From contig DUBV01000051.1 of the NCBI GenBank assembly GCA_012960105.1, positions 15,898 to 79,897 on the forward strand: DNA of 64,000 nt. The letters are read 5' to 3'. This document shows positions 2,546-52,702 of the stretch, one piece after another. Position 1 is the stretch's first letter. Every line of letters starts with the position of its first letter. The translations under genes and the position numbers were made by a program. The notes under the pieces are model-generated. The model made no database searches, was not told the origin of the DNA, and worked only from the letters and a program-made list of their open reading frames with translations. This DNA comes from Thiotrichaceae bacterium (GTDB lineage: Bacteria > Pseudomonadota > Gammaproteobacteria > Eutrophobiales > Eutrophobiaceae).

Positions 2546-3298
2546 ATGACACTGGCAGATTTCCAACAAGGTTCTGATCAACTTTTTTGGGTTAAAGATA
2601 ATTTATTAGCCGCAAACTTTCCGACCGTTGATAAAGCCTTGCGTGATCCAGATGGTTTACTTGCTATTGGCGGAGACTTATCAACGCAACGCCTGTTACA
2701 AGCTTATAAAAACGGAATATTCCCCTGGTACAATGAAGGCCAACCCATCATGTGGTGGTCACCTGATCCTCGTTGTGTTTTAGTTCCTAACGAAATTAGA
2801 ATATCTCGCAGCCTTAAAAAACGTTTATTACAAAATAAACTCAAGATCACTTATAACACCGCATTTACCGATGTACTTAATGCCTGTGCTGCTAGCAGAA
2901 AAGGAGTTGGGGACACATGGATAACAAATAAGATAAAAGGAGCCTACTTTAGTTTATTTAAACTAGGCTATGCACACTCTGTTGAATGTTGGCGTGATAA
3001 CAAACTCGTTGGTGGTTTATATGGCCTTGCTATGGGTAAAGTATTTTTTGGCGAATCCATGTTTAGCCGCGAATCTGATGCATCAAAAACAGCGCTAGTT
3101 CACCTTGGCCAACAACTTGATAAAATGAATTTTAGATTGATTGATTGTCAGGTGCACTCTGAACATTTACAAACACTCGGTGCAAAACCTATGCAAAGAG
3201 AACTATTTATTCAGATTCTGAATAATTATTGTAATAATGAGAAACTGATTTTACCTTCATCAGATTTATCCGTAGTGAATCATTCAAGTAATGGATGA
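2546..3298 (+). CDS. aat: Leucyl/phenylalanyl-tRNA--protein transferase
   Basis: 250 aa with conserved L/F-transferase motifs (FPWYNEGQPIMWWSPDPR, GGLYGLAMGKVFFGESMFSRESDASKTALVHL). Its end overlaps the start of ate. Confidence 0.9.
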   Translation: MTLADFQQGSDQLFWVKDNLLAANFPTVDKALRDPDGLLAIGGDLSTQRLLQAYKNGIFPWYNEGQPIMWWSPDPRCVLVPNEIRISRSLKKRLLQNKLKITYNTAFTDVLNACAASRKGVGDTWITNKIKGAYFSLFKLGYAHSVECWRDNKLVGGLYGLAMGKVFFGESMFSRESDASKTALVHLGQQLDKMNFRLIDCQVHSEHLQTLGAKPMQRELFIQILNNYCNNEKLILPSSDLSVVNHSSNG

Positions 3299-4028
3299 CC
3301 AATCAAAAAAACTCCGCTTTTTTATCACTCCGGCAACTTCATGTAATTATCTTGATAATCGTGAAGCGAGTAGTATATTTGCCGATCCAATATTTCCAAA
3401 AAATAGAGCACTTTACTCAACATTGGTTGCCAATGGTTTCAGACGTAGTGGTGAACATCTATATCAACCTTATTGTTCTGGATGTTCTGAATGTATTCCT
3501 ATACGGGTTCCCATTAATAAATTTAAATTTCGGCGCAATCAAAAAAGAACATGGAACAGCAATCAGGATTTAACAGTTAAACAAATAATGGCTGAATTTA
3601 ATGAAGAATATTTTCAACTCTACAGGAAATATCTCTCTGCTCGTCACCCTGATGGCGGCATGGATAATCCTGCTAGAGACGATTACAGTAATTTTCTCTG
3701 GTGTTCCTGGTCAGAAACATATTTATTTGAATTCAGACTTGATAAAAAATTAATTGCCGTCGCTGTCGTTGACCAATTAGAAAATTCCTTTTCCGCGGTT
3801 TATACTTTTTTCGACCCGGATTTACAGAAACGCAGTCTTGGCAAATATGCCGTTTTGTATCTTATCGAGCATAGCAAGCAGATGGGGTTTTCATGGCTAT
3901 ATCTCGGCTATTGGATCGCAAACTGCGGCAAAATGAAATACAAGATCGATTATCAGCCTACTGAATGCTTTATTAGTGATGAATGGAAGGAATTTAGCAC
4001 TTTAGACTTTGCAGTGACGCAAAATTAG
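3291..4028 (+). CDS. bpt: Arginyl-tRNA--protein transferase / Asp/Glu leucyltransferase (Bpt/Ate family)
   Basis: 245 aa. N-terminal Cys-rich motif (CSGCSEC), the FRRSG motif and a C-terminal GNAT-like region (YLGYWIANCGKMKYK) are typical of bacterial Bpt/Ate1. Confidence 0.85.
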   Translation: MDDQSKKLRFFITPATSCNYLDNREASSIFADPIFPKNRALYSTLVANGFRRSGEHLYQPYCSGCSECIPIRVPINKFKFRRNQKRTWNSNQDLTVKQIMAEFNEEYFQLYRKYLSARHPDGGMDNPARDDYSNFLWCSWSETYLFEFRLDKKLIAVAVVDQLENSFSAVYTFFDPDLQKRSLGKYAVLYLIEHSKQMGFSWLYLGYWIANCGKMKYKIDYQPTECFISDEWKEFSTLDFAVTQN

Positions 4029-4064
4029 TGCAGAATTCGCCCTTTTTCAGGAAACGAGGGATGT

Positions 4065-4283
4065 ATGGCAAAAGAAGACCAAATCGAAATGGATGGAACC
4101 GTTGTCGAAACACTACCAAACACTATGTTCCGTGTTGAATTAGAGAATGGCCATATCATTACTGCTCATATCTCAGGAAAAATGCGTAAACATTATATCC
4201 GCATCCTTACTGGGGACACGGTTACTGTCGAAATGACACCTTATGATTTAAGCAAAGGCCGAATTACTTATAGAGCTAGATAA
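4065..4283 (+). CDS. infA: Translation initiation factor IF-1
   Basis: 72 aa, [72 protein letters not shown]. Near-canonical IF-1. Confidence 0.97.
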
Positions 4284-4291
4284 TCTTTTAC

Positions 4292-4314
4292 ATAGCAAGT
4301 CTTAGCCTTGCTAT
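4292..4314. terminator. Putative bidirectional terminator hairpin between convergent infA and kdsB
   Basis: Stem atagcaag/cttgctat with a 7-nt loop, followed by a T-rich tract on the + strand. Confidence 0.35.
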
Positions 4315-4318
4315 TCTC

Positions 4319-5053
4319 CTATTTTCTTGCGAGTTCCAGATCTTCAACGGTATCGATGCCCAGGCCCGCATCATCTACTGCAATTTCCACATGAATTTTT
4401 CCGCCATTATAAAGAACGCGTAATTGCTCAAGCGCTTCTGTTTGTTCTAATACGCAGACTGGTAAATGAGTAAATTCCTGTAAGTAACCCGCTCGATAAG
4501 CATAAAGACCAATATGTCGATAAACATCTTTAGGTAGATCACCGACTCTATTTGCAGGGATGGGAGAACGACTGAAATAAAGCGCGGTATTATTTATATC
4601 AAATATCACTTTTACAATATTAGGATTATTGTAATCATCTATTGTTAAAATCTCTTCACATAAAGTCGCAAGCTGTTTATTCGGATTATTAAATAAATTC
4701 GATGCTACCTGTTCAACTAATGATACAGGCAAACCATATTCATCACCTTGAAGGTTGACAATAATTTCATCATCATCCATATCAAGATTACTAACGACTT
4801 CCGCTATTCTATCTGTTCCCGACTCGTGCTTATCGGAAGTCATCACAACAGTTGCACCAAATGAATCGGCAATACTCGCTATCTCATCATTGTCCGTAGC
4901 AATATAAATATTTTTTGCTTGTGTGTTTGATGCTGTCTCGAACACATGTTGTATTAAAGGTTTACCTTTAATATCTAATAAAGATTTTCCTGGCAAACGA
5001 GTAGAAGCATAACGTGCGGGTATAACAATACTGAATGGTACTGGCATTGACAT
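4319..5053 (-). CDS. kdsB: 3-deoxy-manno-octulosonate cytidylyltransferase (CMP-KDO synthetase)
   Basis: Strong colinear similarity to E. coli KdsB (IPARYASTRLPGK, NLQGDEY, HIGLYAYRAGYL, EQLRVL..GKIHV). The true start is probably 2 codons in. Confidence 0.93.
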   Translation of the reverse strand: MSMPVPFSIVIPARYASTRLPGKSLLDIKGKPLIQHVFETASNTQAKNIYIATDNDEIASIADSFGATVVMTSDKHESGTDRIAEVVSNLDMDDDEIIVNLQGDEYGLPVSLVEQVASNLFNNPNKQLATLCEEILTIDDYNNPNIVKVIFDINNTALYFSRSPIPANRVGDLPKDVYRHIGLYAYRAGYLQEFTHLPVCVLEQTEALEQLRVLYNGGKIHVEIAVDDAGLGIDTVEDLELARK

Positions 5054-41473: not shown

Positions 41474-42073
41474 TTAGATTGGAGTATTCCAGTTTCCATC
41501 AAAGAAATTATCGCCAAGTGAATTTCGCGCGCGCTCATTATATTCACGTTCTTTCATATCCTCAGGAATATCACTTTCAGCTAATTGATAACCTACCGTC
41601 ATCATCGCCATCAGTTCATACTGCTCCGGTATCTCAAATGCTTCTCTGGTCATATCAACATCAAAGCCACCCATTTGATGCACCATTAATCCTAATGAAG
41701 CCGCTTGTAGACATAAGTTTTCTGAAGCCGCACCCGTATCATATTGTCCCCAGCGATTAGGGCTGCCATTTTTCGACACCTTCGAATCAGCACACGCCAA
41801 AAACAATAAAGGGGCATACTTAGCCCAGGATAGATTACCTGCAACTAAACACGACATCGCTTTTTCCCAAGCAGAAACATTCGTCGCTTTATCAAAAACA
41901 ATAAATCGCCAAGGTTGATCGCCAAAACAGGAAGGTGCCCAACGTGCGGCTTCCATAAGTGAAACTATATCTTCACGGGCAACAAGCTTCTCAGCATCAT
42001 AAGCCCGACCACTCCAACGAGAAGCGATTAATTCATTAATAGTGGTTTTTGTCTCAATTTTCTTATTAAACAT
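41474..42073 (-). CDS. Nitroreductase family protein (YdjA-like)
   Basis: 199 aa, RWSGRAY..PSCFGDQPWRF motif of the NAD(P)H nitroreductase fold. Confidence 0.75.
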   Translation of the reverse strand: MFNKKIETKTTINELIASRWSGRAYDAEKLVAREDIVSLMEAARWAPSCFGDQPWRFIVFDKATNVSAWEKAMSCLVAGNLSWAKYAPLLFLACADSKVSKNGSPNRWGQYDTGAASENLCLQAASLGLMVHQMGGFDVDMTREAFEIPEQYELMAMMTVGYQLAESDIPEDMKEREYNERARNSLGDNFFDGNWNTPI

Positions 42074-42148: not shown

Positions 42149-43081
42149 ATGTCAGACATAGAAATATATCAAAAACTCTCTGCCAATATTGAAAAAGTAA
42201 TACAGGGACAGTCTATATCGATTAGAAAACTCCTGGCCGCATTCTTTAGCAATGGGCATGTCTTGCTTGAAGATGTTCCCGGCACCGGTAAAACGACGCT
42301 GGCAAAGGCGCTAGCAAAATCTATCGATATCGAATTCCAGCGTATACAGTTTACACCCGATTTATTGCCTACCGATATTCTTGGGGTATCTATTTTCAAT
42401 CAACGTGACCATGATTTTGAGTTTCATCAAGGTCCCATATTCAGCAATATACTACTGGCAGATGAAATCAATCGTGCTTCGCCACGCACACAATCAGCGT
42501 TACTAGAAGCCATGGGCGAACGTCAGGTCAGTATTGAACGCAATCAATATCAGCTAGATGAGTTATTTTTTGTTATTGCCACACAAAATCCGATTGAATA
42601 TCACGGCACCTATCCTCTACCCGAGGCACAAATGGATCGTTTTGCTATGCGATTTGGACTTGGCTATGTCAATCCGGAAGAAGAAATTGCCATACTCGAT
42701 AATCAAAGCAGTCATCACCCTATTGATGATCTAACACCCTGCATTAGTAAAACCGATGTTATTCACCTAAAACAACACGTTACTAAAATTAACATCAGTG
42801 ATGAAGTTAAACATTACATGGTTAACCTTGTACGAGCGACCCGAGAAACAGAAGGAATTATCAATGGTGCCAGCCCACGTGCCTCACTATCGTTAATGAA
42901 AGCAGCGCAAGCACTAGCCTTGTTTGATGGCCTGGATTATGTCACGCCTGATCATGTGCAGGAAATAGCCATTCCTATCATGTCACATCGTATCATGATG
43001 GATTCACAAGCGCGTTTCTCTGGCAATAGCAGCGATCAAATTATTGAAGCGATCCTGTCCAACATAGCTGTTCCCACTTAG
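42149..43081 (+). CDS. MoxR family AAA+ ATPase
   Basis: 310 aa with Walker A GVPGTGKTT, Walker B LLADEINRASPRTQSALLEAM and sensor motifs. Confidence 0.88.
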   Translation: MSDIEIYQKLSANIEKVIQGQSISIRKLLAAFFSNGHVLLEDVPGTGKTTLAKALAKSIDIEFQRIQFTPDLLPTDILGVSIFNQRDHDFEFHQGPIFSNILLADEINRASPRTQSALLEAMGERQVSIERNQYQLDELFFVIATQNPIEYHGTYPLPEAQMDRFAMRFGLGYVNPEEEIAILDNQSSHHPIDDLTPCISKTDVIHLKQHVTKINISDEVKHYMVNLVRATRETEGIINGASPRASLSLMKAAQALALFDGLDYVTPDHVQEIAIPIMSHRIMMDSQARFSGNSSDQIIEAILSNIAVPT

Positions 43082-43097
43082 GACAGAGATTAAAAGC

Positions 43098-44441
43098 ATG
43101 TTACGTAGACTGCTGTTTGCAAACTTCAAACTGGTTTACAAACTAAGTCAATGGATGCGACAACGTTTTACCGCTGCCGGCATGTTAATCCTTTTAACCA
43201 TGCCTGTTGCTGGCGTGTTTGGCTTTGATACGCGCTCGACACTTTCCTTCCAAATATTCTCTATTACCTTAATACTTTTAATTACCTCAATTAGTTTTTC
43301 ATTATTATTTCGAGGAAAGTTTTCTATCGATAGAAAATTACCCGACTACGGCACAGTCGGCACAGCTTTGTATTATTCTTGCGCAATTAAAAATAATAAT
43401 AAAAAACCACGTAAAGGTTTGGTGTTGATTGATGATTTAAATAGTCCGTTTCCGACATTGGATGAATTTATTCATGCAAAAGATCCACTAGATAAGATTC
43501 GCAATCGTGTCGATCGAATTATGGGTTACCCGCGATTAATGAACACCATAAGAAAACTACGCGGCGCTGCCATAGCGCCCGTGTCAATTGACTATATTGC
43601 TGAAAATAGCGAAACAGAAGAAAACATTAAACTAATCCCCTTGCGTAGAGGCTATCTTTATTTCGAAAAAATCAGGTTAGCCCAAGCTGACCCATTGGGT
43701 TTATTTCAAGCACAAAAAATATTTAAGAAAAAAGATAAATTATTAATACTGCCTAAATTATATAAAACGCCTACTCTAAACACGCATGGTAAACGCACCT
43801 ATCAACAAGGTGGCATCAATAACGCGTCATCAATCGGCGATTCACAAGAGTTTATTTCTCTACGCGATTATCGACCCGGCGATCCTATTCGTTCTATACA
43901 TTGGAAAAGCTTTGCCAAAACAAACCACCTTGTTGTTAAAGAATATAATGATGAATTCTTTATCCGTTATGGCCTAATCCTCGATACTTGGCTTGACGAT
44001 AAATCAGAAGACATATTCGAAGATGCCATTTCTATAGCAGCATCATTTATGACCGCACAAAAAGAACAAGATGCCCTGTTAGATTTAATGTTTATAGGTA
44101 ACAACACCTATCGATTTACATCAGGTCGTGGCTTAGGCGGGACAGAGAACATCATGGAAGTACTTGCTTGTATAAAGCCTGTCTATGAAAGCAATATAAA
44201 AAGCATGGAAGTCATGCTGAACGAGTATATGCATGAATGTAGTGCCTTAATATGCATTTTGCTGGATCTTGACAAACCCCGCCAACGATTATTAAGAACC
44301 CTTGCTAGCTATAACGTACCTATAAAAGTATTAATCATTAGCGATACTGAAAAATTAGAAATAGTATACATCCCGCACTTAACTGATATCAATGTCATTC
44401 ATCATGATCGCTTACAACAAGATCTCGATGTCCTGTCGTAA
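43098..44441 (+). CDS. DUF58 domain protein (vWA-like, MoxR partner)
   Basis: 447 aa with N-terminal TM segments and a DUF58 core (DYRPGDPIRSIHWKSFAKTNHLVVKEY). Confidence 0.75.
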   Translation: MLRRLLFANFKLVYKLSQWMRQRFTAAGMLILLTMPVAGVFGFDTRSTLSFQIFSITLILLITSISFSLLFRGKFSIDRKLPDYGTVGTALYYSCAIKNNNKKPRKGLVLIDDLNSPFPTLDEFIHAKDPLDKIRNRVDRIMGYPRLMNTIRKLRGAAIAPVSIDYIAENSETEENIKLIPLRRGYLYFEKIRLAQADPLGLFQAQKIFKKKDKLLILPKLYKTPTLNTHGKRTYQQGGINNASSIGDSQEFISLRDYRPGDPIRSIHWKSFAKTNHLVVKEYNDEFFIRYGLILDTWLDDKSEDIFEDAISIAASFMTAQKEQDALLDLMFIGNNTYRFTSGRGLGGTENIMEVLACIKPVYESNIKSMEVMLNEYMHECSALICILLDLDKPRQRLLRTLASYNVPIKVLIISDTEKLEIVYIPHLTDINVIHHDRLQQDLDVLS

Positions 44442-44444
44442 GCT

Positions 44445-46439
44445 ATGAATAATATAAATATAAATATAAAAACAGTTAAAAATCGCTTAAAAGCAGCACC
44501 TCTGGGTTTAACCTTAGCAAGCTTACTACTATGGGGATGGCAAACAGACTATCTGTTTTATGCCATTATTATGGGTGTATTGCTAGAACTGCCCTACTTT
44601 ATAAAATGGCGAATTGAATTTAGTGAAAAGGATATCAATCAACTCGCCGATCTCAGCGGCATCCTATTTTTTATTGTTACTGTTTATGTCTTCGTAAACT
44701 ATTCATTTCAAGGAATATATAAAATCCTTGAATTGCTTCCATTTGCTTTAGTTATACTCATGCTTGCGCAAAATTACAGTATGCAAAATGGGATCAGAAC
44801 TTCAGCCTTGTTTATCAGTATCCGCCGTATGGGTAACAAAGCCGACTCTGATATTCTTTATGACACCAATATCAGCCTGCCTTATATTTTTCTTTGCTTG
44901 ATCTCAGCTAGCTCCGGCAATAAATATAACGAAGTGTTTTTCTTTTCTAGCTCTTTCATCATTGTATGGACACTCTGGGGATTAAGAGCAAAACACCATT
45001 CCATTATTTCCTGGCTTACACCGATAGCCATTGTCATATCCATATCATTCTTAACTCAACAAGGCTTACAGACTTTACAAAATAACGCAGAAATTTTCTT
45101 TCTCGATCTATTCGAGCAATATGGTTTTTCCAGTCGCGATCCAGATCGCGCCAGAACCACAATAGGTTCATTAGGACGATTAAAATTATCTGATCGTATT
45201 GTTTTAAGAATAAAATCAGACCATGAGCTAGACACGCCGCTCTATTTTCGAGAAACATCATACAGTCGCTATCACCACGGGACATGGAGCAATCCTCAAG
45301 TTGAATTCGATATCATAGAAAAAACTCCTGCAAAAAAAGAATGGCGTTTAAATAAACAATTAAATGACACTGGGAATTTTGATATCGCAATCTACTTGCA
45401 AGATCAGTCATCTATACTTCCCGTGCCAGATAATATAAACACATTATCCGGAAAAGATTTAATTCAGGTGGAAACTAGCATCTATGGTTCAACAAGAATC
45501 GAAGCACGTGAAGGCTGGATTAGTTATCGACTAGGATATTCTGACAAAGATTTTGTTGAAGTTGAACCTACGGCAGATGACTTAGTAATCCAACTCAACT
45601 ATCAAAATGATTTTAAACTAGTCGCAGAAGAATTAGAACTCTATACAAAATCACCAGAACAAATCATTAATACTGTAAAACAATATTTTAAAGATAACTT
45701 TTATTATTCGATCACACAAAATCAACGCTACACAAGAGGACAGTATTTAACAAAGTTTTTATTTAAAGATAAAAAAGGACACTGCGAATATTTTGCCACA
45801 GCCACCGCCCTACTTCTACGCGAAGCCGGCATACCTACACGCTATACCATAGGTTATTCAGTACAAGAATACAGCGCATGGCAAAAGATGTACTTAGTGC
45901 GTGCACGCCATGCACATTCATGGCTTAAATATTATATCAACGGAAAATGGCATAAGATGGATACAACACCATCAATATGGGCACCAATGGAAGCTGCAGA
46001 CAGAACCATAATGGAACCGTTCTTCGATCTACTTTCATATTTGCGCTATAAAATAACCGGCAGTGAAATTGAATCAAATACCGAGTCAAATGATTGGCTT
46101 ATATGGCTACTCATACCATTAATGGCATATTTAGTATGGCGCTTTTATAATAAACAACGAGTAGATACGAAAAAGACTCGCAACGATAATTTTGACACTA
46201 AACTAAAACGATTTGGTATGGACTCCCCTATTTATCCGCTATTACAAAATCTGGAACAAGAGGCAGCGACAAGACTACAGGGAGAAACATTAAGCAAATG
46301 GATAAAACGAATATTGCCAATAACAGAGGCAGAAAAATATCTCCAGTTGATTAAGTTACATAATCGTTATCGGTTTAATCCTGTTAGTAATAAGCGTCAT
46401 GACAAACAATCAATAAAAGAGCTATTAGATCGCGTCTAA
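44445..46439 (+). CDS. Transglutaminase-like membrane protein (DUF3488 + transglutaminase core, TgpA-like)
   Basis: 664 aa. Multi-TM N-terminus, Cys protease-like core (GHCEYFATATALLLREAGIPTRYTIGY, later H/D) and a C-terminal TM. Confidence 0.8.
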   Translation: MNNININIKTVKNRLKAAPLGLTLASLLLWGWQTDYLFYAIIMGVLLELPYFIKWRIEFSEKDINQLADLSGILFFIVTVYVFVNYSFQGIYKILELLPFALVILMLAQNYSMQNGIRTSALFISIRRMGNKADSDILYDTNISLPYIFLCLISASSGNKYNEVFFFSSSFIIVWTLWGLRAKHHSIISWLTPIAIVISISFLTQQGLQTLQNNAEIFFLDLFEQYGFSSRDPDRARTTIGSLGRLKLSDRIVLRIKSDHELDTPLYFRETSYSRYHHGTWSNPQVEFDIIEKTPAKKEWRLNKQLNDTGNFDIAIYLQDQSSILPVPDNINTLSGKDLIQVETSIYGSTRIEAREGWISYRLGYSDKDFVEVEPTADDLVIQLNYQNDFKLVAEELELYTKSPEQIINTVKQYFKDNFYYSITQNQRYTRGQYLTKFLFKDKKGHCEYFATATALLLREAGIPTRYTIGYSVQEYSAWQKMYLVRARHAHSWLKYYINGKWHKMDTTPSIWAPMEAADRTIMEPFFDLLSYLRYKITGSEIESNTESNDWLIWLLIPLMAYLVWRFYNKQRVDTKKTRNDNFDTKLKRFGMDSPIYPLLQNLEQEAATRLQGETLSKWIKRILPITEAEKYLQLIKLHNRYRFNPVSNKRHDKQSIKELLDRV

Positions 46440-46459: not shown

Positions 46460-47116
46460 CTATGAATAGACGAACAAATAGTTACCTTCGATTTTATATT
46501 TAATTTTAGTAAGCGGCTGTTGATTCCCATTTTCTATACATTCACCATTCTCTAGGTTGAACTTCCAGTGATGCATTGGGCACTCCAGTGTCATTCCATC
46601 GATTGCATCACCGGGAATATTTGAGGCCTTATGTGGACAGATACTATCGAAGACTATAAAGTCATCACCGTCTCTTGAGACAAAACAAGCTTGCTTGCCA
46701 TATTCAAAGCGTGACGCACCTTCTTTTATATCAGTAATCTCAATTAACTTATGCCATTGTTTTTTTTTAGTTTGAACTGCCTTGGTCTGTTCTATCTTAC
46801 CCAATTTTTCCGGATCAAATTCAGGAAGTTCCATTTTCAGGATTATGTCTACCGCCCAGATGATTTTGCTTAGTCCTAATGTCGGCATACAAACCAACAT
46901 GGCATCTAATATTTCATCGGCACTATTACCTTCTTTTAATGCCCTCTTTAAATATTGTTTTAAACCGGCTTCTGTTTGCGCATTAACTTTGGTTATTACT
47001 GATAATAAAAATCGGGTTTTATCATCAAGATGTTTACCTCCCTCTTTTAAAAATTTAAAATAAGGTTGTATCGCGTCTTTTCTAACGTCTAATAAATAAT
47101 CCAGTGCATCACTCAT
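46460..47116 (-). CDS. Fusion protein: carboxymuconolactone decarboxylase (CMD/AhpD-like) domain + Rieske [2Fe-2S] domain
   Basis: C-terminal Rieske boxes CPH...(17)...CPMH (CPHKASNIPGDAIDGMTLECPMHHWKF). The N-terminal ~110 aa have a CMD-like helical pattern (ILDAMLVCMPTLGLSKIIWA). The track ORF starts at 47152. The Met at 47116 avoids the overlap, leaving the upstream stop 2 nt before this ATG. Confidence 0.6.
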   Translation of the reverse strand: MSDALDYLLDVRKDAIQPYFKFLKEGGKHLDDKTRFLLSVITKVNAQTEAGLKQYLKRALKEGNSADEILDAMLVCMPTLGLSKIIWAVDIILKMELPEFDPEKLGKIEQTKAVQTKKKQWHKLIEITDIKEGASRFEYGKQACFVSRDGDDFIVFDSICPHKASNIPGDAIDGMTLECPMHHWKFNLENGECIENGNQQPLTKIKYKIEGNYLFVYS

Positions 47117-47615
47117 TTGTATATTGTACCTCTTCTTGTTCTTCTTCTGCATCTTCCCATGCTATAGGTGGCATTTTTACAGTAACTTCACCGATTTTAT
47201 TTGCATAGATATCGTCCATTAAGAAAGTCCTGGTCGGATTATCGTAATTCTGATGCAGTAACATAATATTTAATTTCGGATCAGTTGTTTTTATTATTTC
47301 TTCTTCCATTTCAAATAATATCGTTTTCTTAATAACCTGGCGCACAGGGATATGCACCGAAACAATACCGACACGATGGCTATCTCTTCGAGTACATGCA
47401 TTGGTATTATGTTTTTGAAAACAACGTACACCTACTTCCATAACAGGCGATCCCGTATCTGCATTCACTGTACGAAAACGTAACTCGACAAAGTCCAGCC
47501 TTACATCCAGTTTCGTACCGAATAACGCAAAATAATCTGCAGTAACAAAAGAAGCTGATATAAATATAAAAAATGAAACTACATATATTGCTATCCTAAC
47601 TGCTTTTTTATTCAT
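47109..47615 (-). CDS. Hypothetical membrane-anchored protein with acidic C-terminus
   Basis: 168 aa with N-terminal TM (IAIYVVSFFIFISASFVTA) and an EEEQEEVQYTNE tail. Translationally coupled between the antiporter and the CMD-Rieske gene. Confidence 0.5.
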   Translation of the reverse strand: MNKKAVRIAIYVVSFFIFISASFVTADYFALFGTKLDVRLDFVELRFRTVNADTGSPVMEVGVRCFQKHNTNACTRRDSHRVGIVSVHIPVRQVIKKTILFEMEEEIIKTTDPKLNIMLLHQNYDNPTRTFLMDDIYANKIGEVTVKMPPIAWEDAEEEQEEVQYTNE

Positions 47616-47620
47616 TCCAT

Positions 47621-48790
47621 TTAGTCTCTACGTAGTCGATCAGTTACTGAAATTGGCGTCGGGTATCGCATTACAATAATGTATGACGATACTGCGAAAG
47701 TAAGTAATGTTGCTAATTGAATTAAGTAAGACGTTTTATCGTCGATAAAACCTGATTCAACAGCAAGAACAGCTATTAATAAAGAAAACTCACTGATCTG
47801 CCCTAACCTGAATCCTGTTTCATATGAAACGTATTTTTTCTCGCCTTGTTTTAGTAATAGCCAGCCAAAGACTAGCGGTTTGAATATCAACACCATCGCC
47901 GCTAGCAAGATTGCCGGAATATATATTTCATTAATGACTGACATATTAAATCCCGCACCTAGTGAAAAGAAAAATATAATTAAAAAGAAATCTCGCAACG
48001 GCTTTAAACTCTCAGTAATAAAAAGTGCAATGGGACAAGACGCTAGAGTGACACCCGCGACTAAAGCACCTATTTCAGGAGACAAACCGATATAATTTGC
48101 TAATTCGGCAATACCAAGACACCATGCGATTGCTAATAAAAATATATACTCATGTATTTGATCAAAACGTTGAATTAACTTTACCAATACATATTTTTCT
48201 AATACGTAAGCAATACCGATTAACATAGGCAGATAAACTAATTGCAGAGCAATATCTGAAACCAGGTTTCCACCTTTGCCATAACCTTGTAGCAATAACA
48301 AAATAACAATAGCGATTAAATCCTGTATCAATAAAACACTGATAATAATCTGCCCGGTATGACGATGATGTAATATTGTCGTCGGCAATAATTTCAAACC
48401 AATAATGGTACTTGAGAACATCATAACCGCACCGATTAACATCGCTTGTAACAGTTCGTATCCAAATACAAATCCTATAAGAAAACCAAACACGCAAAAG
48501 ATCGCTGAACTGGCAAAGGTAACTACTATCGCTTCTCTTAACATTTTCCATAATTGCTGTGGAAGTAAATCCAGACCTAATAAATACAGGAGAAAAATAA
48601 TACCTATATTAGAAATATCGCTGATCAATTCAGCATCATTTACAAAGCCCAGTCCCCAAGGGCCCAGTATTAAACCAAGTGCGATGTAAGCAATTATCAT
48701 TGCCTGTCGTGCATACAAGGCAATCGTCGCGAACACTGCTGCGCCGGTAAATATTAAAAATATTGAAAATTCTATTGATTGCTCAGCCAT
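47621..48790 (-). CDS. Monovalent cation:proton antiporter, CPA2/Kef-type membrane domain (no KTN domain)
   Basis: 389 aa polytopic membrane protein. The Na+/H+-exchanger family N-terminus (GLILGPWGLGFV, IFLLYLLGLDL) resembles the KefB/KefC membrane domain. Confidence 0.75.
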   Translation of the reverse strand: MAEQSIEFSIFLIFTGAAVFATIALYARQAMIIAYIALGLILGPWGLGFVNDAELISDISNIGIIFLLYLLGLDLLPQQLWKMLREAIVVTFASSAIFCVFGFLIGFVFGYELLQAMLIGAVMMFSSTIIGLKLLPTTILHHRHTGQIIISVLLIQDLIAIVILLLLQGYGKGGNLVSDIALQLVYLPMLIGIAYVLEKYVLVKLIQRFDQIHEYIFLLAIAWCLGIAELANYIGLSPEIGALVAGVTLASCPIALFITESLKPLRDFFLIIFFFSLGAGFNMSVINEIYIPAILLAAMVLIFKPLVFGWLLLKQGEKKYVSYETGFRLGQISEFSLLIAVLAVESGFIDDKTSYLIQLATLLTFAVSSYIIVMRYPTPISVTDRLRRD

Positions 48791-48805: not shown

Positions 48806-51800
48806 TCATTCCATTTGTTGATACTGCTGCCACATTCTATCCATGCGTTTCATTGAAACGGGGACATTCGTTTTTAATTCTTGTGTAAACAAGGATATTC
48901 GTAATTCTTCAATTAGCCAACGGTAATCATATAAGGATGTCGTAAAACACTCTGTTTCATAGGCATTATCTACTAATTTCTTGATTCGATTCCAGTGTTC
49001 GCTAATAAGCAAGGTATTTTGTCTATCTTTCTCAAGCCCACCAGTCAGTTTTTCGAGACGTTTTAATATGGAATCCAGATATCTTGGATACTGGATAAGA
49101 TATTTATAAGGAATATCATCAATAAAACCAGCAAAGATTAAATACTCCATCTGACCTTCAATATCGGCAACCGTATTACCATGCTTTAAAATATCGGCAT
49201 CAGAAAGTCGGGCCAATACGCTAATCTGTTTTTGTAATATCGTTTCTAACAAAATACATACTTTTTCAGAATTCATTAATAAATTCTGTTTATCCTGAGA
49301 CAGGCTTGCATAGAAATGGTCCTTTTTTCTAATCGGTTCCTGCTTATACAAAAAAGTTTCGTCTAATGTCAGGTTGACTATTTCACCTATTAACTCGTCT
49401 CTCGTCCCTATATTGCTATACATCAACGCTAGCTTTTCAATGCCACGAAGATTTTTGCGCATATATTTAATTTCTTTTGCCAGTTCCTTCTTGAATAAAC
49501 CTCTTAGGCCATATCTTAAATAATATTCTGCGCTACCCTGATTATCGAATGCGTGGCGATAGACTTTACCCTCTTCCTCTATCAATGAGGGATAAACTGT
49601 AATGCTATTGCCATCGGTTTCTATTTCCTGTTTTATCGGTAACTCGTCAAAATCCCACGAGGATATTTCTTCTGTGCCATAAACATCATCGTATAATTCG
49701 ATAAAGGCATTATCTGCTTTGTCCGAAAATGATTCCTTTAATACGCTAATATCTTTTCCTGAACCTAGCACCGCATTTTCTGCATCAAGAATTCGATAAT
49801 TTATTTTTAAATGTTCTGGTAATGATGTATCAGACCAATCATTTTCTTTTATTTCTATGGAACGTGTTCTCAATATATAGGCGGATATATTTTTCTTTAA
49901 AGACACGCCGCGGTTATTAATATTGCGCGCACATTCCTTAGCAACATCCGGGATAGGTACTATTTTTGTTCTGATAGACTTAGGCAACGATCGTAATAGC
50001 AACACAATCTTTTCTTCTAACAAGCCAGGCACCAGATAATCCATCTGCTTATCATTAAATTGATTTAATACAGCAACAGGAATATCTATGCTTAAACCAT
50101 CTTCGCTTTGACCTGGTTCGAACTTATATTCAAGCGGCATACTGATGCCTTTAGATTGAATATAATCTGGGTATGATATTTCAGTAACGTCACTTGCCTC
50201 ATGACTCATGATTTGTTCTTTATCAAAAAACAACGCTTGTTTTTGTTCTTGACTAAGCTTCTTCGTCCACACGGCAAATGATTGGCCATCATAAACATCC
50301 GCTGGCAACGCTTTATGATAGAAACTATATATAGCTTCCTCATCAATTATATCTGGACGACGCGATTTAATTTCTAATTCACGAATCTCATTAATGACTT
50401 GATTATTATGTTTAAAAAATTTCGCACTGGATTCCAGATCTCCATCAACAAGTGCATTCCTTATAAATAATATTTTCGATTCAACAGGATTGACACGGCC
50501 ATAGTTAACTCTTTTTCCGGCAACCAACGTCATACCGTATAAACTAATTTTTTGTAACGCGACCACACTCGAACTTTTACTTTCCCAATGTGCACCGGAA
50601 TAATCGTACTTTAATAAATGTTTTGCGCTGCTTATTAACCAATTTGATTCTATCTTGGCAACATTGCGCGCATACAGTCGTGAAGTCTCAACCAAATCCG
50701 CGGCAACGATCCACTTCGGTTTATTATTAAACTGTGCCGATGCAGGAAATATATTTAACTTAATATCTCTAGCACCGGTGTATTCATGTTTATCAGATAA
50801 GAAAGCAACATGACTCGGCATGCCGGTTAATATTGCACAGTGCACATTTTGATACGTAGCCGGCTCTGTATTAATAGAAAACTTCATCTCAGTACAGACA
50901 TGGCGTAACTGTCGATGAATATCGGCCCATTCACGCATACGCATATACGATAAAAAGTTTTGCTGGCATAACTTTCTTAATTTATTTTGCGATAACTTTT
51001 TTGTTTGTTTCTGATAAAAATACCAGAGATTAACAAACCATAAAAAATCTGAATTCTCATCATCAAACTGTTGATGCGATTCGTCTGATTTTTGTTGCTT
51101 ATCTATAGGTCGCTCTCTCGGACTTTGGATACTTAAAACGCCAACAATAATTAACATTTCATTCAAACAATTAAATTCATTCGCCGCGAGTAATAATCTT
51201 GCGTGTCTCGGATCTAATGGAAACCGCGCTACTCTTCTACCAATAGACGTCAGATTATCTTGTTTATCCAGCGCGTTAATTTCTTGTAACACACGCATGC
51301 CATCACTGATTAACTTTTTCTCTGGCGGGTCGATGAAAGGAAATTTTTCTATCTCACCAATATTCAGAGCCTTCATTTGTAAAATTACCGAAGCGAGATT
51401 AGTACGCAATATTTCTGGCTGCGTATATTCACTACGAGCGTTGAAATCTTCTTCGCTATACAAACGAATGCAAATTCCTTCGCTGGTACGACCGCAACGT
51501 CCCTTACGTTGATTTGCCGCCGCCATTGATATTCTTTCTATGGGCAAACGTTGTACTTTACTTTTATAGCTATAACGACTGATGCGCGCCATACCGCTAT
51601 CAATAACGTAACGGATACCGGGAATGGTCAATGATGTCTCGGCAAGATTTGTTGCCAACACCACATGACGGCGCTTATGCGGTGCAAAGATTTTGTTTTG
51701 TCGCGACGAACTTAAACGTGCATACAGCGGCAGAATATCGGTATCGGGCAGATTTTGCTTGCGCAATAACTTGTCTGTTTCGTGTATCTCGCCCTCGCCT

Positions 51801-52702
51801 TCTAAAAATATGAGTATGTCACCCATATCAAAGCTAGCGAGTTCATTAATGGCATCCAGTATTGCGCCTTCGCGGCCGCGTGATTCCTCATCACTTTCGT
51901 CGATATCTTCCTCTATAGGTCGGTATAAAACGTCAACAGGCCAGCTTCGTCCAGAAACTTCGATTACTGGTGCATTATTGAAGTGATCGGAAAAACGCGT
52001 TACATCAATAGTTGCCGAAGTAATAATAACTTTCAGATCCGGCCGTTTCGGCAACAATTGTTTTAAATAACCGAGGATAAAATCTATATTCAGACTGCGC
52101 TCATGAGCTTCATCTATAATTATCGTATCATATTGATTTAAATAGCGATTTTGTTGCAATTCGGCTAATAAAATTCCGTCTGTCATCAATTTGATATAAG
52201 AATCTTTATTGGTGTTGTCCTGATGACGTATTTTATAACCAACGTGTGTTCCTAGCTCAGAATCCAGTTCATCGGCAATGCGCTTAGCTACGGTTCTTGC
52301 GGCGAGTCTTCTCGGCTGAGTATGAGCAATATATCCTTCAATTCCTCGGCCTAGAGTCAAACAAAGCTTGGGAAGCTGTGTTGTTTTACCTGATCCAGTC
52401 TCACCACAAATAATAACCACCTGATTATTTTGTATTGCTTCAGAAATAGCCTGCGCATGCTGATTAATAGGTAAATTTTTATCAAATTGGCAATTTGGCA
52501 GGTTTGCTTGCCGATCTAGTTTGGTTTGGATTGAATTTTCAATATTTCGACTTAGAACATCCCAATCAGACTGCTTAAGCTCCGTTCGCTTGCGTAATTG
52601 CTCAAATTTGCACGTAAGATTATGGCGCTCAGAAGCCCATACCTCGGCTAATCGAGCACGTAATTTGTCGCTTATATCGGACTTTTTATTTGTTTTATTC
52701 AC
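48806..52702 (-). CDS. hrpA: ATP-dependent RNA helicase HrpA (DEAH-box)
   Basis: 1298 aa with GETGSGKTTQLP, DEAH (IIDEAHERS), helicase C, HA2/OB domains and a long HrpA-specific C-terminal extension. Confidence 0.92.
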   Translation of the reverse strand: MNKTNKKSDISDKLRARLAEVWASERHNLTCKFEQLRKRTELKQSDWDVLSRNIENSIQTKLDRQANLPNCQFDKNLPINQHAQAISEAIQNNQVVIICGETGSGKTTQLPKLCLTLGRGIEGYIAHTQPRRLAARTVAKRIADELDSELGTHVGYKIRHQDNTNKDSYIKLMTDGILLAELQQNRYLNQYDTIIIDEAHERSLNIDFILGYLKQLLPKRPDLKVIITSATIDVTRFSDHFNNAPVIEVSGRSWPVDVLYRPIEEDIDESDEESRGREGAILDAINELASFDMGDILIFLEGEGEIHETDKLLRKQNLPDTDILPLYARLSSSRQNKIFAPHKRRHVVLATNLAETSLTIPGIRYVIDSGMARISRYSYKSKVQRLPIERISMAAANQRKGRCGRTSEGICIRLYSEEDFNARSEYTQPEILRTNLASVILQMKALNIGEIEKFPFIDPPEKKLISDGMRVLQEINALDKQDNLTSIGRRVARFPLDPRHARLLLAANEFNCLNEMLIIVGVLSIQSPRERPIDKQQKSDESHQQFDDENSDFLWFVNLWYFYQKQTKKLSQNKLRKLCQQNFLSYMRMREWADIHRQLRHVCTEMKFSINTEPATYQNVHCAILTGMPSHVAFLSDKHEYTGARDIKLNIFPASAQFNNKPKWIVAADLVETSRLYARNVAKIESNWLISSAKHLLKYDYSGAHWESKSSSVVALQKISLYGMTLVAGKRVNYGRVNPVESKILFIRNALVDGDLESSAKFFKHNNQVINEIRELEIKSRRPDIIDEEAIYSFYHKALPADVYDGQSFAVWTKKLSQEQKQALFFDKEQIMSHEASDVTEISYPDYIQSKGISMPLEYKFEPGQSEDGLSIDIPVAVLNQFNDKQMDYLVPGLLEEKIVLLLRSLPKSIRTKIVPIPDVAKECARNINNRGVSLKKNISAYILRTRSIEIKENDWSDTSLPEHLKINYRILDAENAVLGSGKDISVLKESFSDKADNAFIELYDDVYGTEEISSWDFDELPIKQEIETDGNSITVYPSLIEEEGKVYRHAFDNQGSAEYYLRYGLRGLFKKELAKEIKYMRKNLRGIEKLALMYSNIGTRDELIGEIVNLTLDETFLYKQEPIRKKDHFYASLSQDKQNLLMNSEKVCILLETILQKQISVLARLSDADILKHGNTVADIEGQMEYLIFAGFIDDIPYKYLIQYPRYLDSILKRLEKLTGGLEKDRQNTLLISEHWNRIKKLVDNAYETECFTTSLYDYRWLIEELRISLFTQELKTNVPVSMKRMDRMWQQYQQME

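Follow-up and report, generated by a model that had tools for sequence, protein, structure and literature searches.

Does a cation/proton antiporter gene that is packed tightly against the genes for a small membrane protein and a redox protein form one system with them? Three minus-strand genes raise this question in the 64,000-nucleotide stretch of Thiotrichaceae DNA analyzed here (the window). They encode a Kef-like CPA2 antiporter lacking a KTN/RCK domain, an unannotated protein for which we use the name ORF2 (for open reading frame 2), and a protein in which a carboxymuconolactone decarboxylase (CMD)-like domain is fused to a Rieske [2Fe-2S] domain, referred to below as the fusion. A preliminary description of the locus, made from the sequence alone, had read the three genes as an operon that could be a redox-gated ion-flux system, with the Rieske/CMD protein in place of the KTN and KefF regulators. 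With somewhat more confidence than doubt, we instead read the locus as two neighboring units: a KTN-less exchanger that works on its own and has a KefC-like K+/H+ site, and a coupled ORF2/CMD-Rieske pair with a one-electron redox task. ORF2 and the fusion are a more persistent unit than the triad of all three genes, and we do not regard the fusion as a gate of the antiporter. The preliminary description did not recognize the combination as a known one, and a full-text literature search likewise found no account of either the triad or a CMD-Rieske fusion.

Distribution and gene order in related genomes

We searched about 400 genomes, sampled evenly across the class, for each of the three proteins, using thresholds of E<=1e-20 for the fusion, E<=1e-50 for antiporter orthologs and E<=1e-3 for ORF2. 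The fusion was found in 41 of 401 genomes. The antiporter was found in 183 of 400 (about 46%), and most matches have 50-85% identity across residues 1-389; two genomes flagged as unpublished (G063 and G319) are counted here, and G271 was not scored. Antiporter orthologs are present in 23 of the 41 fusion genomes (56%) and in about 160 of the 359 fusion-less ones (45%), which is no marked enrichment, and the other 18 fusion genomes have no ortholog at this threshold. The two genes are adjacent in seven genomes, with ORF2 in G000, G003, G349, G082, G255 and G039 and without it in G034; they are on separate contigs in 14, of which G256, G404, G302 and G122 were inspected directly, and two genomes are ambiguous. 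ORF2 was detected in 15 of 401 genomes, namely 14 with the fusion and one fusion-less genome with a weak match (E = 4e-6, 19% identity). It adjoins the fusion in 13 of those 14, and at least five genomes with ORF2 (G112, G118, G233, G304 and G389) lack an antiporter ortholog at E<=1e-50. The fusion is thus accompanied by ORF2 rather than by the antiporter, and this, like the 18 fusion genomes without an antiporter, tells against the idea that the fusion is the regulatory partner of the antiporter.

Relatives of the fusion form 522 clusters at 90% identity and occupy at least 579 genome loci across the Gammaproteobacteria and betaproteobacterial lineages. Among the best 80 of these loci, the antiporter lies directly upstream in 21, of which 18 have ORF2 between the two genes; 52 have no CPA2 gene in at least 1.3 kb upstream, and seven are cut by a contig end. 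In 18 of 80 related loci, the antiporter is immediately preceded by the C-terminal part of hrpA. A census of gene context covered 100 loci in which the fusion is full-length, with 93 distinct proteins among them (loci are given L numbers and genomes G numbers). The order antiporter-ORF2-fusion occurs in 29 of them, antiporter-fusion in four and ORF2-fusion in seven, with one further ORF2-fusion pair at a contig edge; the fusion stands alone in 53 loci and at a contig edge in six. An ORF2 profile run over the six-frame ORFs of 103 loci recovered only the ORF2 loci already known, plus L041, and none in the fusion-alone loci, whose upstream ORFs are unrelated to ORF2. No common partner was found in the fusion-alone loci either, where the neighbors vary (TauD, HemN with a Crp-family regulator, cytochrome c, PGI, SDR, DUF302).

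Within the genus of the window, antiporter and fusion occur together in all 11 loci, and ORF2 in ten (it is absent from L012 and split in L006). L020 and L025 have kept the triad though both flanks differ, and it is also found in L073, where identity is 51% for the fusion and 70% for the antiporter. We built a quick IQ-TREE phylogeny of the fusion (Shimodaira-Hasegawa-like approximate likelihood ratio support, midpoint root), from which the order of gains and losses was not drawn. The window's fusion falls in a clade of 25 rows, nearly all of them triad loci (support 98), and a single group of 56 rows (support 94) holds the fusion-alone loci. Conservation of the triad in other genomes, on which the preliminary description had made its reading depend, is partial: the genes stay together in the clade of the window and in 29 of the 100 loci, but the fusion-alone arrangement is found in more than half, and the antiporter adjoins the fusion in only seven of the 41 fusion genomes.

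The setting of the triad is a block made up of PP2C-FGE, hrpA, a slot, and convergent transglutaminase, DUF58 and MoxR genes. This block is inherited, and the antiporter and the ORF2-fusion pair enter and leave it separately. In L093, L094 and L099 (genomes G389, G233 and G118), hrpA is followed by ORF2 and the fusion without the antiporter, and G118 has the same convergent transglutaminase gene as the window. The opposite case, hrpA followed by the antiporter without ORF2 or the fusion, was seen in four of the 20 fusion-less loci examined (L104, which stops at its contig edge, L106, L113 and L114). The existence of both arrangements leads us to conclude that the triad is a clade-specific neighborhood inside a conserved synteny block. 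In the other 16 fusion-less loci the neighbors of the antiporter vary (AmpD/AmpE-type genes, peroxiredoxin, MerB and others). PP2C-FGE is divergent from the ORF2-fusion pair in G256 and G404, where the antiporter lies elsewhere, after an LMF1/DCC1 gene. The pair occupies an unrelated neighborhood in L095 and L096, and in G112 and G302 it is found amid CNNM/CorC, a cytochrome c assembly gene and FlaG. In G122 the antiporter and ORF2 are followed by an SH3 gene, and the fusion comes after mazG on a second contig (loci L100 and L101).

The slot between antiporter and transglutaminase holds a soluble protein of about 240 amino acids in four fusion-less genomes (L105:1883-2605(-), L106:2143-2859(-), L113:2108-2917(-) and L114:4299-5030(+)). 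These proteins are 38-54% identical to one another and belong to no Pfam or NCBIfam family. They were considered as relatives of ORF2 and rejected (best E = 0.074, filters off).

The genes of the locus and their products

The ORF listing confirms the three minus-strand genes (Table 1) and gives the longest form of the fusion frame as 46460-47152 (230 amino acids). Spacings of 2-6 nucleotides had been proposed for the two junctions. Read directly from the DNA, the antiporter stop is indeed separated from the ORF2 ATG by a 5-nucleotide spacer; ORF2 and the fusion, however, overlap by 8 nucleotides (ATGAGTGA), with the fusion ATG in frame at 47116. The same -8 spacing recurs across most ORF2-bearing loci. 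We set the fusion start at 47116 on account of the conserved N-terminus (MSDAL): all 12 aligned fusion homologs begin MS(D/E)AL, and the real protein therefore has 218 amino acids rather than 230. As the hrpA stop lies only 15 nucleotides ahead of the antiporter ATG, the co-directional string comprises four genes. In a consensus scan, no promoter-like or terminator-like site was found between the genes (overall, 20 promoter-like sites where 26.2 were expected, and 5 terminator-like sites where 4.8 were). The genes hrpA, antiporter, ORF2 and CMD-Rieske form a compact string and are probably co-transcribed.

Table 1. Features of the locus, in window coordinates
Feature	Coordinates	Strand	Basis
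hrpA, DEAH-box helicase, 1298 amino acids (name read from the translation only, without a family scan)	48806..52702	-	ORF and junction
KTN-less CPA2 antiporter, 389 amino acids, Kef/KEA-like transport module	47621..48790	-	PF00999, E = 3.3e-50
Codons of antiporter Q156-D157, "QD" ion-site motif	48320..48325	-	Alignment to KefC
ORF2, 168 amino acids, predicted N-terminal transmembrane helix and transthyretin-like beta-sandwich, unannotated family	47109..47615	-	Structure model
Membrane helix of ORF2 (residues 3-28), with invariant D27 and near-invariant Y28 at its end	47532..47609	-	Alignment and model
ORF2 invariant Cys pair C65...C74, flanking a predicted beta-hairpin loop	47394..47423	-	Alignment and model
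CMD-like::Rieske fusion, 218 amino acids	46460..47116	-	Pfam and alignment
CMD/AhpD-like helical domain, residues ~24-91, without conserved CxxC	46844..47047	-	PF02627
Rieske [2Fe-2S] ferredoxin-type domain, residues ~120-203	46508..46759	-	PF00355
Overlap of ORF2 stop and fusion start, 8 nucleotides (ATGAGTGA)	47109..47116	-	DNA

The antiporter was correctly described at the outset as a Kef-like membrane domain without KTN/RCK. Its only Pfam domain is Na_H_Exchanger (PF00999, profile positions 5-367 of 375), and the chain stops at residue 389, so that neither a second Pfam domain nor a C-terminal KTN/RCK domain follows. The best NCBIfam model, TIGR00932 (2a37, CPA2), stays below its cut-off (142 vs 238.3 bits); the KefB and KefC equivalogs score 114 bits (cut-off 804) and 111 bits (cut-off 752). 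The MagA iron transporter (NF045626) was rejected as an identity, its score of 126 bits falling far short of the cut-off (700). A profile built from 18 orthologs found KefC (8bxg, E = 5.6e-30) to be the closest solved structure and NapA (4bwz, E = 8.3e-25) the next. Q156-D157 aligns on Q155-D156 of KefC, both residues being invariant in the ortholog alignment, and the likewise invariant S126, T128, S333 and K304 align on KefC S125, T127, S336 and K307. According to PMC11150392, the QD motif and K+ site of KefC involve S125, T127, Q155, D156, S336 and K307, and QD replaces the DD of NapA, consistent with electroneutral exchange. From this match of the ion site (QD, the S/T ligands and the lysine of transmembrane helix 11, TM11), we infer that the antiporter belongs to the Kef/KEA type and exchanges K+ for H+ electroneutrally.

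Forty-one antiporter orthologs were extracted, 20 linked to a fusion gene and 21 unlinked. All are 383-391 amino acids long, all have the QD motif and all end in the same YPTP...LRRD tail, so that the KTN-less state is the normal one for the orthogroup. Linked and unlinked antiporters differ in only 15 alignment columns, mostly by conservative exchanges (I/L/V or S/T/A), and among these 41 proteins the linked ones show no distinct surface or tail and no sign of adaptation to a partner. In some CPA2 systems, such as KhtSTU and AmhMT of Bacillus, the KTN domain is on a protein of its own. The ORF listing contains no KefF or KefG gene at the window locus, and neither ORF2 nor the fusion matched a KTN, TrkA or RCK family in Pfam or NCBIfam at E<=0.1. 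The cytoplasmic C-terminal tail, YPTP(I/V/M)(S/A)xxxxLRRD (window 47624-47665), is nearly invariant among the 41 orthologs whether or not the fusion is present, and may be a motif for regulation or sorting in this KTN-less orthogroup. In one relative the antiporter frame halts after 34 codons (L021:4323-4424), through either decay or an assembly error.

ORF2 has no Pfam family at E<=0.1 and no NCBIfam family. Its relatives amount to 94 representative clusters at E<=1e-3 among 1.84 billion, and its family to 32 clusters, all unnamed or labeled "hypothetical protein" and none with a Pfam domain. In an alignment of 25 homologs D27, G33, C65 and C74 are invariant, and Y28, G55, A73, F101 and H121 nearly so; the hallmarks of the family are the N-terminal anchor, an ADY...G motif and the Cys pair. 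The structure model (predicted local distance difference test score, pLDDT, 88.8) consists of a helix at residues 3-28 followed by a beta-sandwich with strands within residues 35-148, of which strands 62-67 and 75-77 lie around the Cys pair, placing C65 and C74 on either side of a hairpin loop. The preliminary picture of a 168-residue protein with one membrane helix and a poly-Glu tail holds for the window itself; the tail, modeled at pLDDT 54-62, varies in length and is missing from several homologs. The terminal Glu common to many ORF2s is forced by the overlap with the fusion start. In an exhaustive structural scan, residues ~40-153 matched the transthyretin-like domain of carboxypeptidase D (5aq0_B; Z 8.7, root-mean-square deviation 2.7, 82 residues aligned) and, as a second match, carboxypeptidase D 1qmu_A (Z 8.4), Z levels that are rated common. 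Foldseek found nothing in the PDB at E<=1e-3, and the Atlas model of ORF2 resembles CarboxypepD_reg clusters (PF13620, PF13715) with template modeling scores of 0.5-0.58. In most rows of the alignment the net charge is positive on the N side of the helix and zero or negative past it, which favors an N-in, C-out orientation; net charge, fold and the Cys pair together make a periplasmic sandwich fairly likely. In one relative ORF2 is split into two overlapping frames (L006:991-1480), again by decay or an assembly error.

Profile searches bear out the CMD-Rieske fusion. The C-terminal half matches PF00355 (E = 5.7e-14; 52.2 bits vs cut-off 20.3), and the ligands C160-x-H162 and C179-x-x-H182 are invariant in all 12 aligned homologs; judged by its sequence, this half is a Rieske [2Fe-2S] ferredoxin-type domain with the predicted cluster ligands present. 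It is modeled at pLDDT >90 and superposes on the naphthalene dioxygenase ferredoxin 2qpz (Z 13.7) and on 1vm9 (Z 12.8), and its closest sequences are T4moC (1vm9, E = 6.3e-10), CarAc and naphthalene dioxygenase ferredoxin. The N-terminal half passes the cut-off of PF02627 (26.9 bits vs 23), a domain that precomputed Pfam annotation gives to most, not all, fusion homologs. This CMD half is modeled at pLDDT of about 58-72 and matches 3d7i weakly (Z 7.1, 29% identity over 63 residues); further CMD-family matches are 2af7 (Z 6.5), 2q0t (E = 1.6e-4) and 1vke. AhpD catalysis uses a CxxC motif. The CMD half has none, and its sole cysteine, C76, is S or A in five of the 12 aligned homologs. Since no CxxC is conserved, AhpD-like disulfide chemistry is unlikely. 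Reading of the fusion N-terminus by eye revealed no signal peptide or twin-arginine motif. In a high-GC family (L099:3126-4196(-) in G118, and G304), a long insertion lies between the CMD and Rieske halves; the alignment spans 253 columns, and a single-protein search had matched only residues 1-109.

In five close relatives, a Flavodoxin_2 gene directly follows the fusion on the same strand (L013:6705-7331(+), L016, L019, L021 and L022). Its best NCBIfam match is to FMN-dependent NADH-azoreductase (134.9 bits vs cut-off 188); tried as a KefF or KefG, it scores as an AzoR-type azoreductase instead. The genome of the window has a homolog (57% identity) on another contig (L124; G000:C53:70233-70838). 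A nitroreductase gene follows the fusion in L034 and L094. Just upstream of the fusion in L045 (5729-5986(+)), and similarly in L056, L065 and L087, is a gene for a protein of 84-85 amino acids (MMAEAI...) with no Pfam family; these loci are from Hydrogenophilales, Thiobacillaceae and Gallionellaceae, and the protein may be another lineage-specific companion of the fusion. In a betaproteobacterial fusion clade, genes for a Crp/FNR-type regulator and a HemN-like radical SAM protein are found a few genes upstream (L037:2404-3330(-) and 3224-4666(+)), and the same clusters recur in other loci among L040, L053, L055, L058, L062, L072 and L074; only the L037 copies were scanned against Pfam. These neighbors hint at oxygen-related regulation.

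In the window, a convergent trio (42149-46439, +) encoding a MoxR-like ATPase, a DUF58-type protein and a transglutaminase-like membrane protein ends 20 nucleotides from the fusion stop, and beyond it lies a nitroreductase gene (41474-42073, -). The trio accompanies the block in many relatives. The names of these four window genes were read from their translations, and Pfam was run only on the transglutaminase of L099 and the nitroreductase of L094.

One unit, two units or none

Under the reading of two units, the antiporter would work without a KTN domain or an ancillary protein, which seems to be how it functions in the many genomes where it occurs alone. ORF2 and the fusion would be a two-gene module, translationally coupled by their overlap. 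The ORF2 product may be a transthyretin-like beta-sandwich anchored in the membrane, probably on its periplasmic side, and marked by an invariant Cys pair, and the fusion a cytoplasmic protein combining a Rieske-type [2Fe-2S] ferredoxin domain with an AhpD/CMD-like helical domain that has lost its CxxC. The fusion could then serve as a one-electron redox carrier or sensor, its cluster possibly fed by the flavin reductases encoded beside it in relatives (AzoR-type azoreductase and nitroreductase). Several observations weigh against this reading. The triad is tightly packed, by a 5-nucleotide spacer and an 8-nucleotide overlap, and kept in 29 of the 100 loci; selection on a functional operon would equally have kept it in L020 and L025 despite their changed flanks. 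Four loci have antiporter and fusion adjacent and no ORF2. G122 keeps ORF2 with the antiporter and has the fusion elsewhere, so that ORF2 is not exclusively tied to the fusion. K+R counts around the ORF2 helix do not discriminate its orientation. Finally, the sampled genomes are related to one another, and the counts taken from them are not independent and are given without a statistical test.

Could the antiporter be redox-gated after all? In the window's clade, CMD-Rieske, perhaps tethered by ORF2, would dock on the KTN-less antiporter and gate K+/H+ exchange according to the redox state of the cell, doing the job that KTN, glutathione adducts and KefF/KefG do for KefB and KefC. Coupled genes, a KefC-like transport module, and a triad that L073 shares with the window's clade and that survives the flank changes of L020 and L025 are all as such a system would have them, and PMC7349511 and PMC11150392 establish separate soluble regulators of CPA2 exchangers, KefF and KefG. 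We nevertheless consider gating quite improbable. The proposed replacement of KTN/KefF by a Rieske/CMD protein founders on the orthogroup, which is KTN-less wherever examined (41 of 41) and most of whose copies occur without the fusion, in about 160 genomes of the class sample. The antiporter is missing from 18 of the 41 fusion genomes and from the hrpA-ORF2-fusion loci, the linked antiporters have no distinct surface or tail, and whole-block synteny explains the adjacency. Another way to tie ORF2 to the antiporter is to regard it as a single-helix accessory subunit packed on the transporter, with the fusion as a downstream passenger. That ORF2 adjoins the fusion in 13 of 14 genomes, occurs in at least five genomes without an antiporter ortholog, leaves about 160 antiporter-bearing genomes without a match to the window's ORF2 and is absent from four loci with antiporter and fusion adjacent makes this very improbable indeed, in spite of the 5-nucleotide spacer coupling it to the antiporter and of G122, where those two genes are together and the fusion is on the other contig. 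The distribution shows that the association of antiporter and pair is facultative and argues against an obligate link; it does not show that the association is functionless where it is present.

It is also conceivable, if unlikely, that the locus contains no functional unit, and that unrelated neighbors in a slowly rearranging block have only inherited their gene order, the pairing of ORF2 with the fusion included. The conserved 8-nucleotide overlap, the restriction of ORF2 to fusion-bearing genomes (bar the one weak match) and the joint move of the pair into an unrelated neighborhood in L095 and L096 speak for a real pair. What keeps the possibility in view is that every combination exists (antiporter-fusion, ORF2-fusion, antiporter-ORF2 and fusion alone) and that in 53 of the 100 loci the fusion has neither partner, the ORF2 profile having found no copy there. 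Moreover, if the ORF2 domain is periplasmic and the fusion cytoplasmic, contact between them would be possible only through the helix.

If the two-unit reading is true, there is nothing unusual about the antiporter, which belongs to a large and little-studied KTN-less group with a KefC-like ion site. The more useful outcome would then be the definition of a conserved unannotated pair, ORF2 and the CMD-Rieske fusion, whose invariant residues (D27, G33, C65 and C74 of ORF2, and the Rieske ligands of the fusion) are suited to mutation. The locus also illustrates how an operon can be tightly packed, with overlapping genes, and yet represent a clade-specific juxtaposition in a synteny block and not a system. 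Redox gating, were it true, would be iron-sulfur-based gating of a CPA2 transporter, for which there is no described precedent.

Comparison with known systems

The predicted ORF2 sandwich may share the seven-stranded fold of transthyretin-like and CarboxypepD_reg domains, with no Pfam match at the sequence level. The N-terminal half of the fusion passes the Pfam cut-off for the AhpD/CMD family and differs from it in having no conserved CxxC, a weak match and low model confidence. The C-terminal half corresponds to the small Rieske ferredoxins, namely T4moC (1VM9), naphthalene dioxygenase ferredoxin (2QPZ) and CarAc (1VCK), with E values of 6e-10 to 6e-8 and Z of 12.5-13.7. Unlike those oxygenase ferredoxins, the window protein is fused to a CMD-like domain and, in part of its family, paired with ORF2, and no oxygenase or dedicated reductase gene is present at the window locus.

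With KefC and KefB of E. coli (PDB 8BXG), and by extension the plant KEA proteins, the antiporter shares the QD motif, the aligned K+-coordinating positions and the TM11 lysine. It differs from them in lacking a C-terminal KTN/RCK domain, in having no KefF or KefG gene at its locus and in scoring far below the cut-offs of the KefB and KefC equivalogs; with neither KTN/RCK nor KefF/KefG, gating by glutathione adducts presumably cannot work as it does in KefC. NapA of Thermus thermophilus (PDB 4BWZ, 5BZ2/3; E = 8e-25) is a CPA2 Na+/H+ antiporter of similar size (~385-394 amino acids). In PMC11150392, NapA is described as electrogenic with a DD ion-site motif, whereas the window antiporter has QD. 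NapA is itself KTN-less, so that a CPA2 antiporter without a KTN domain is an established architecture.

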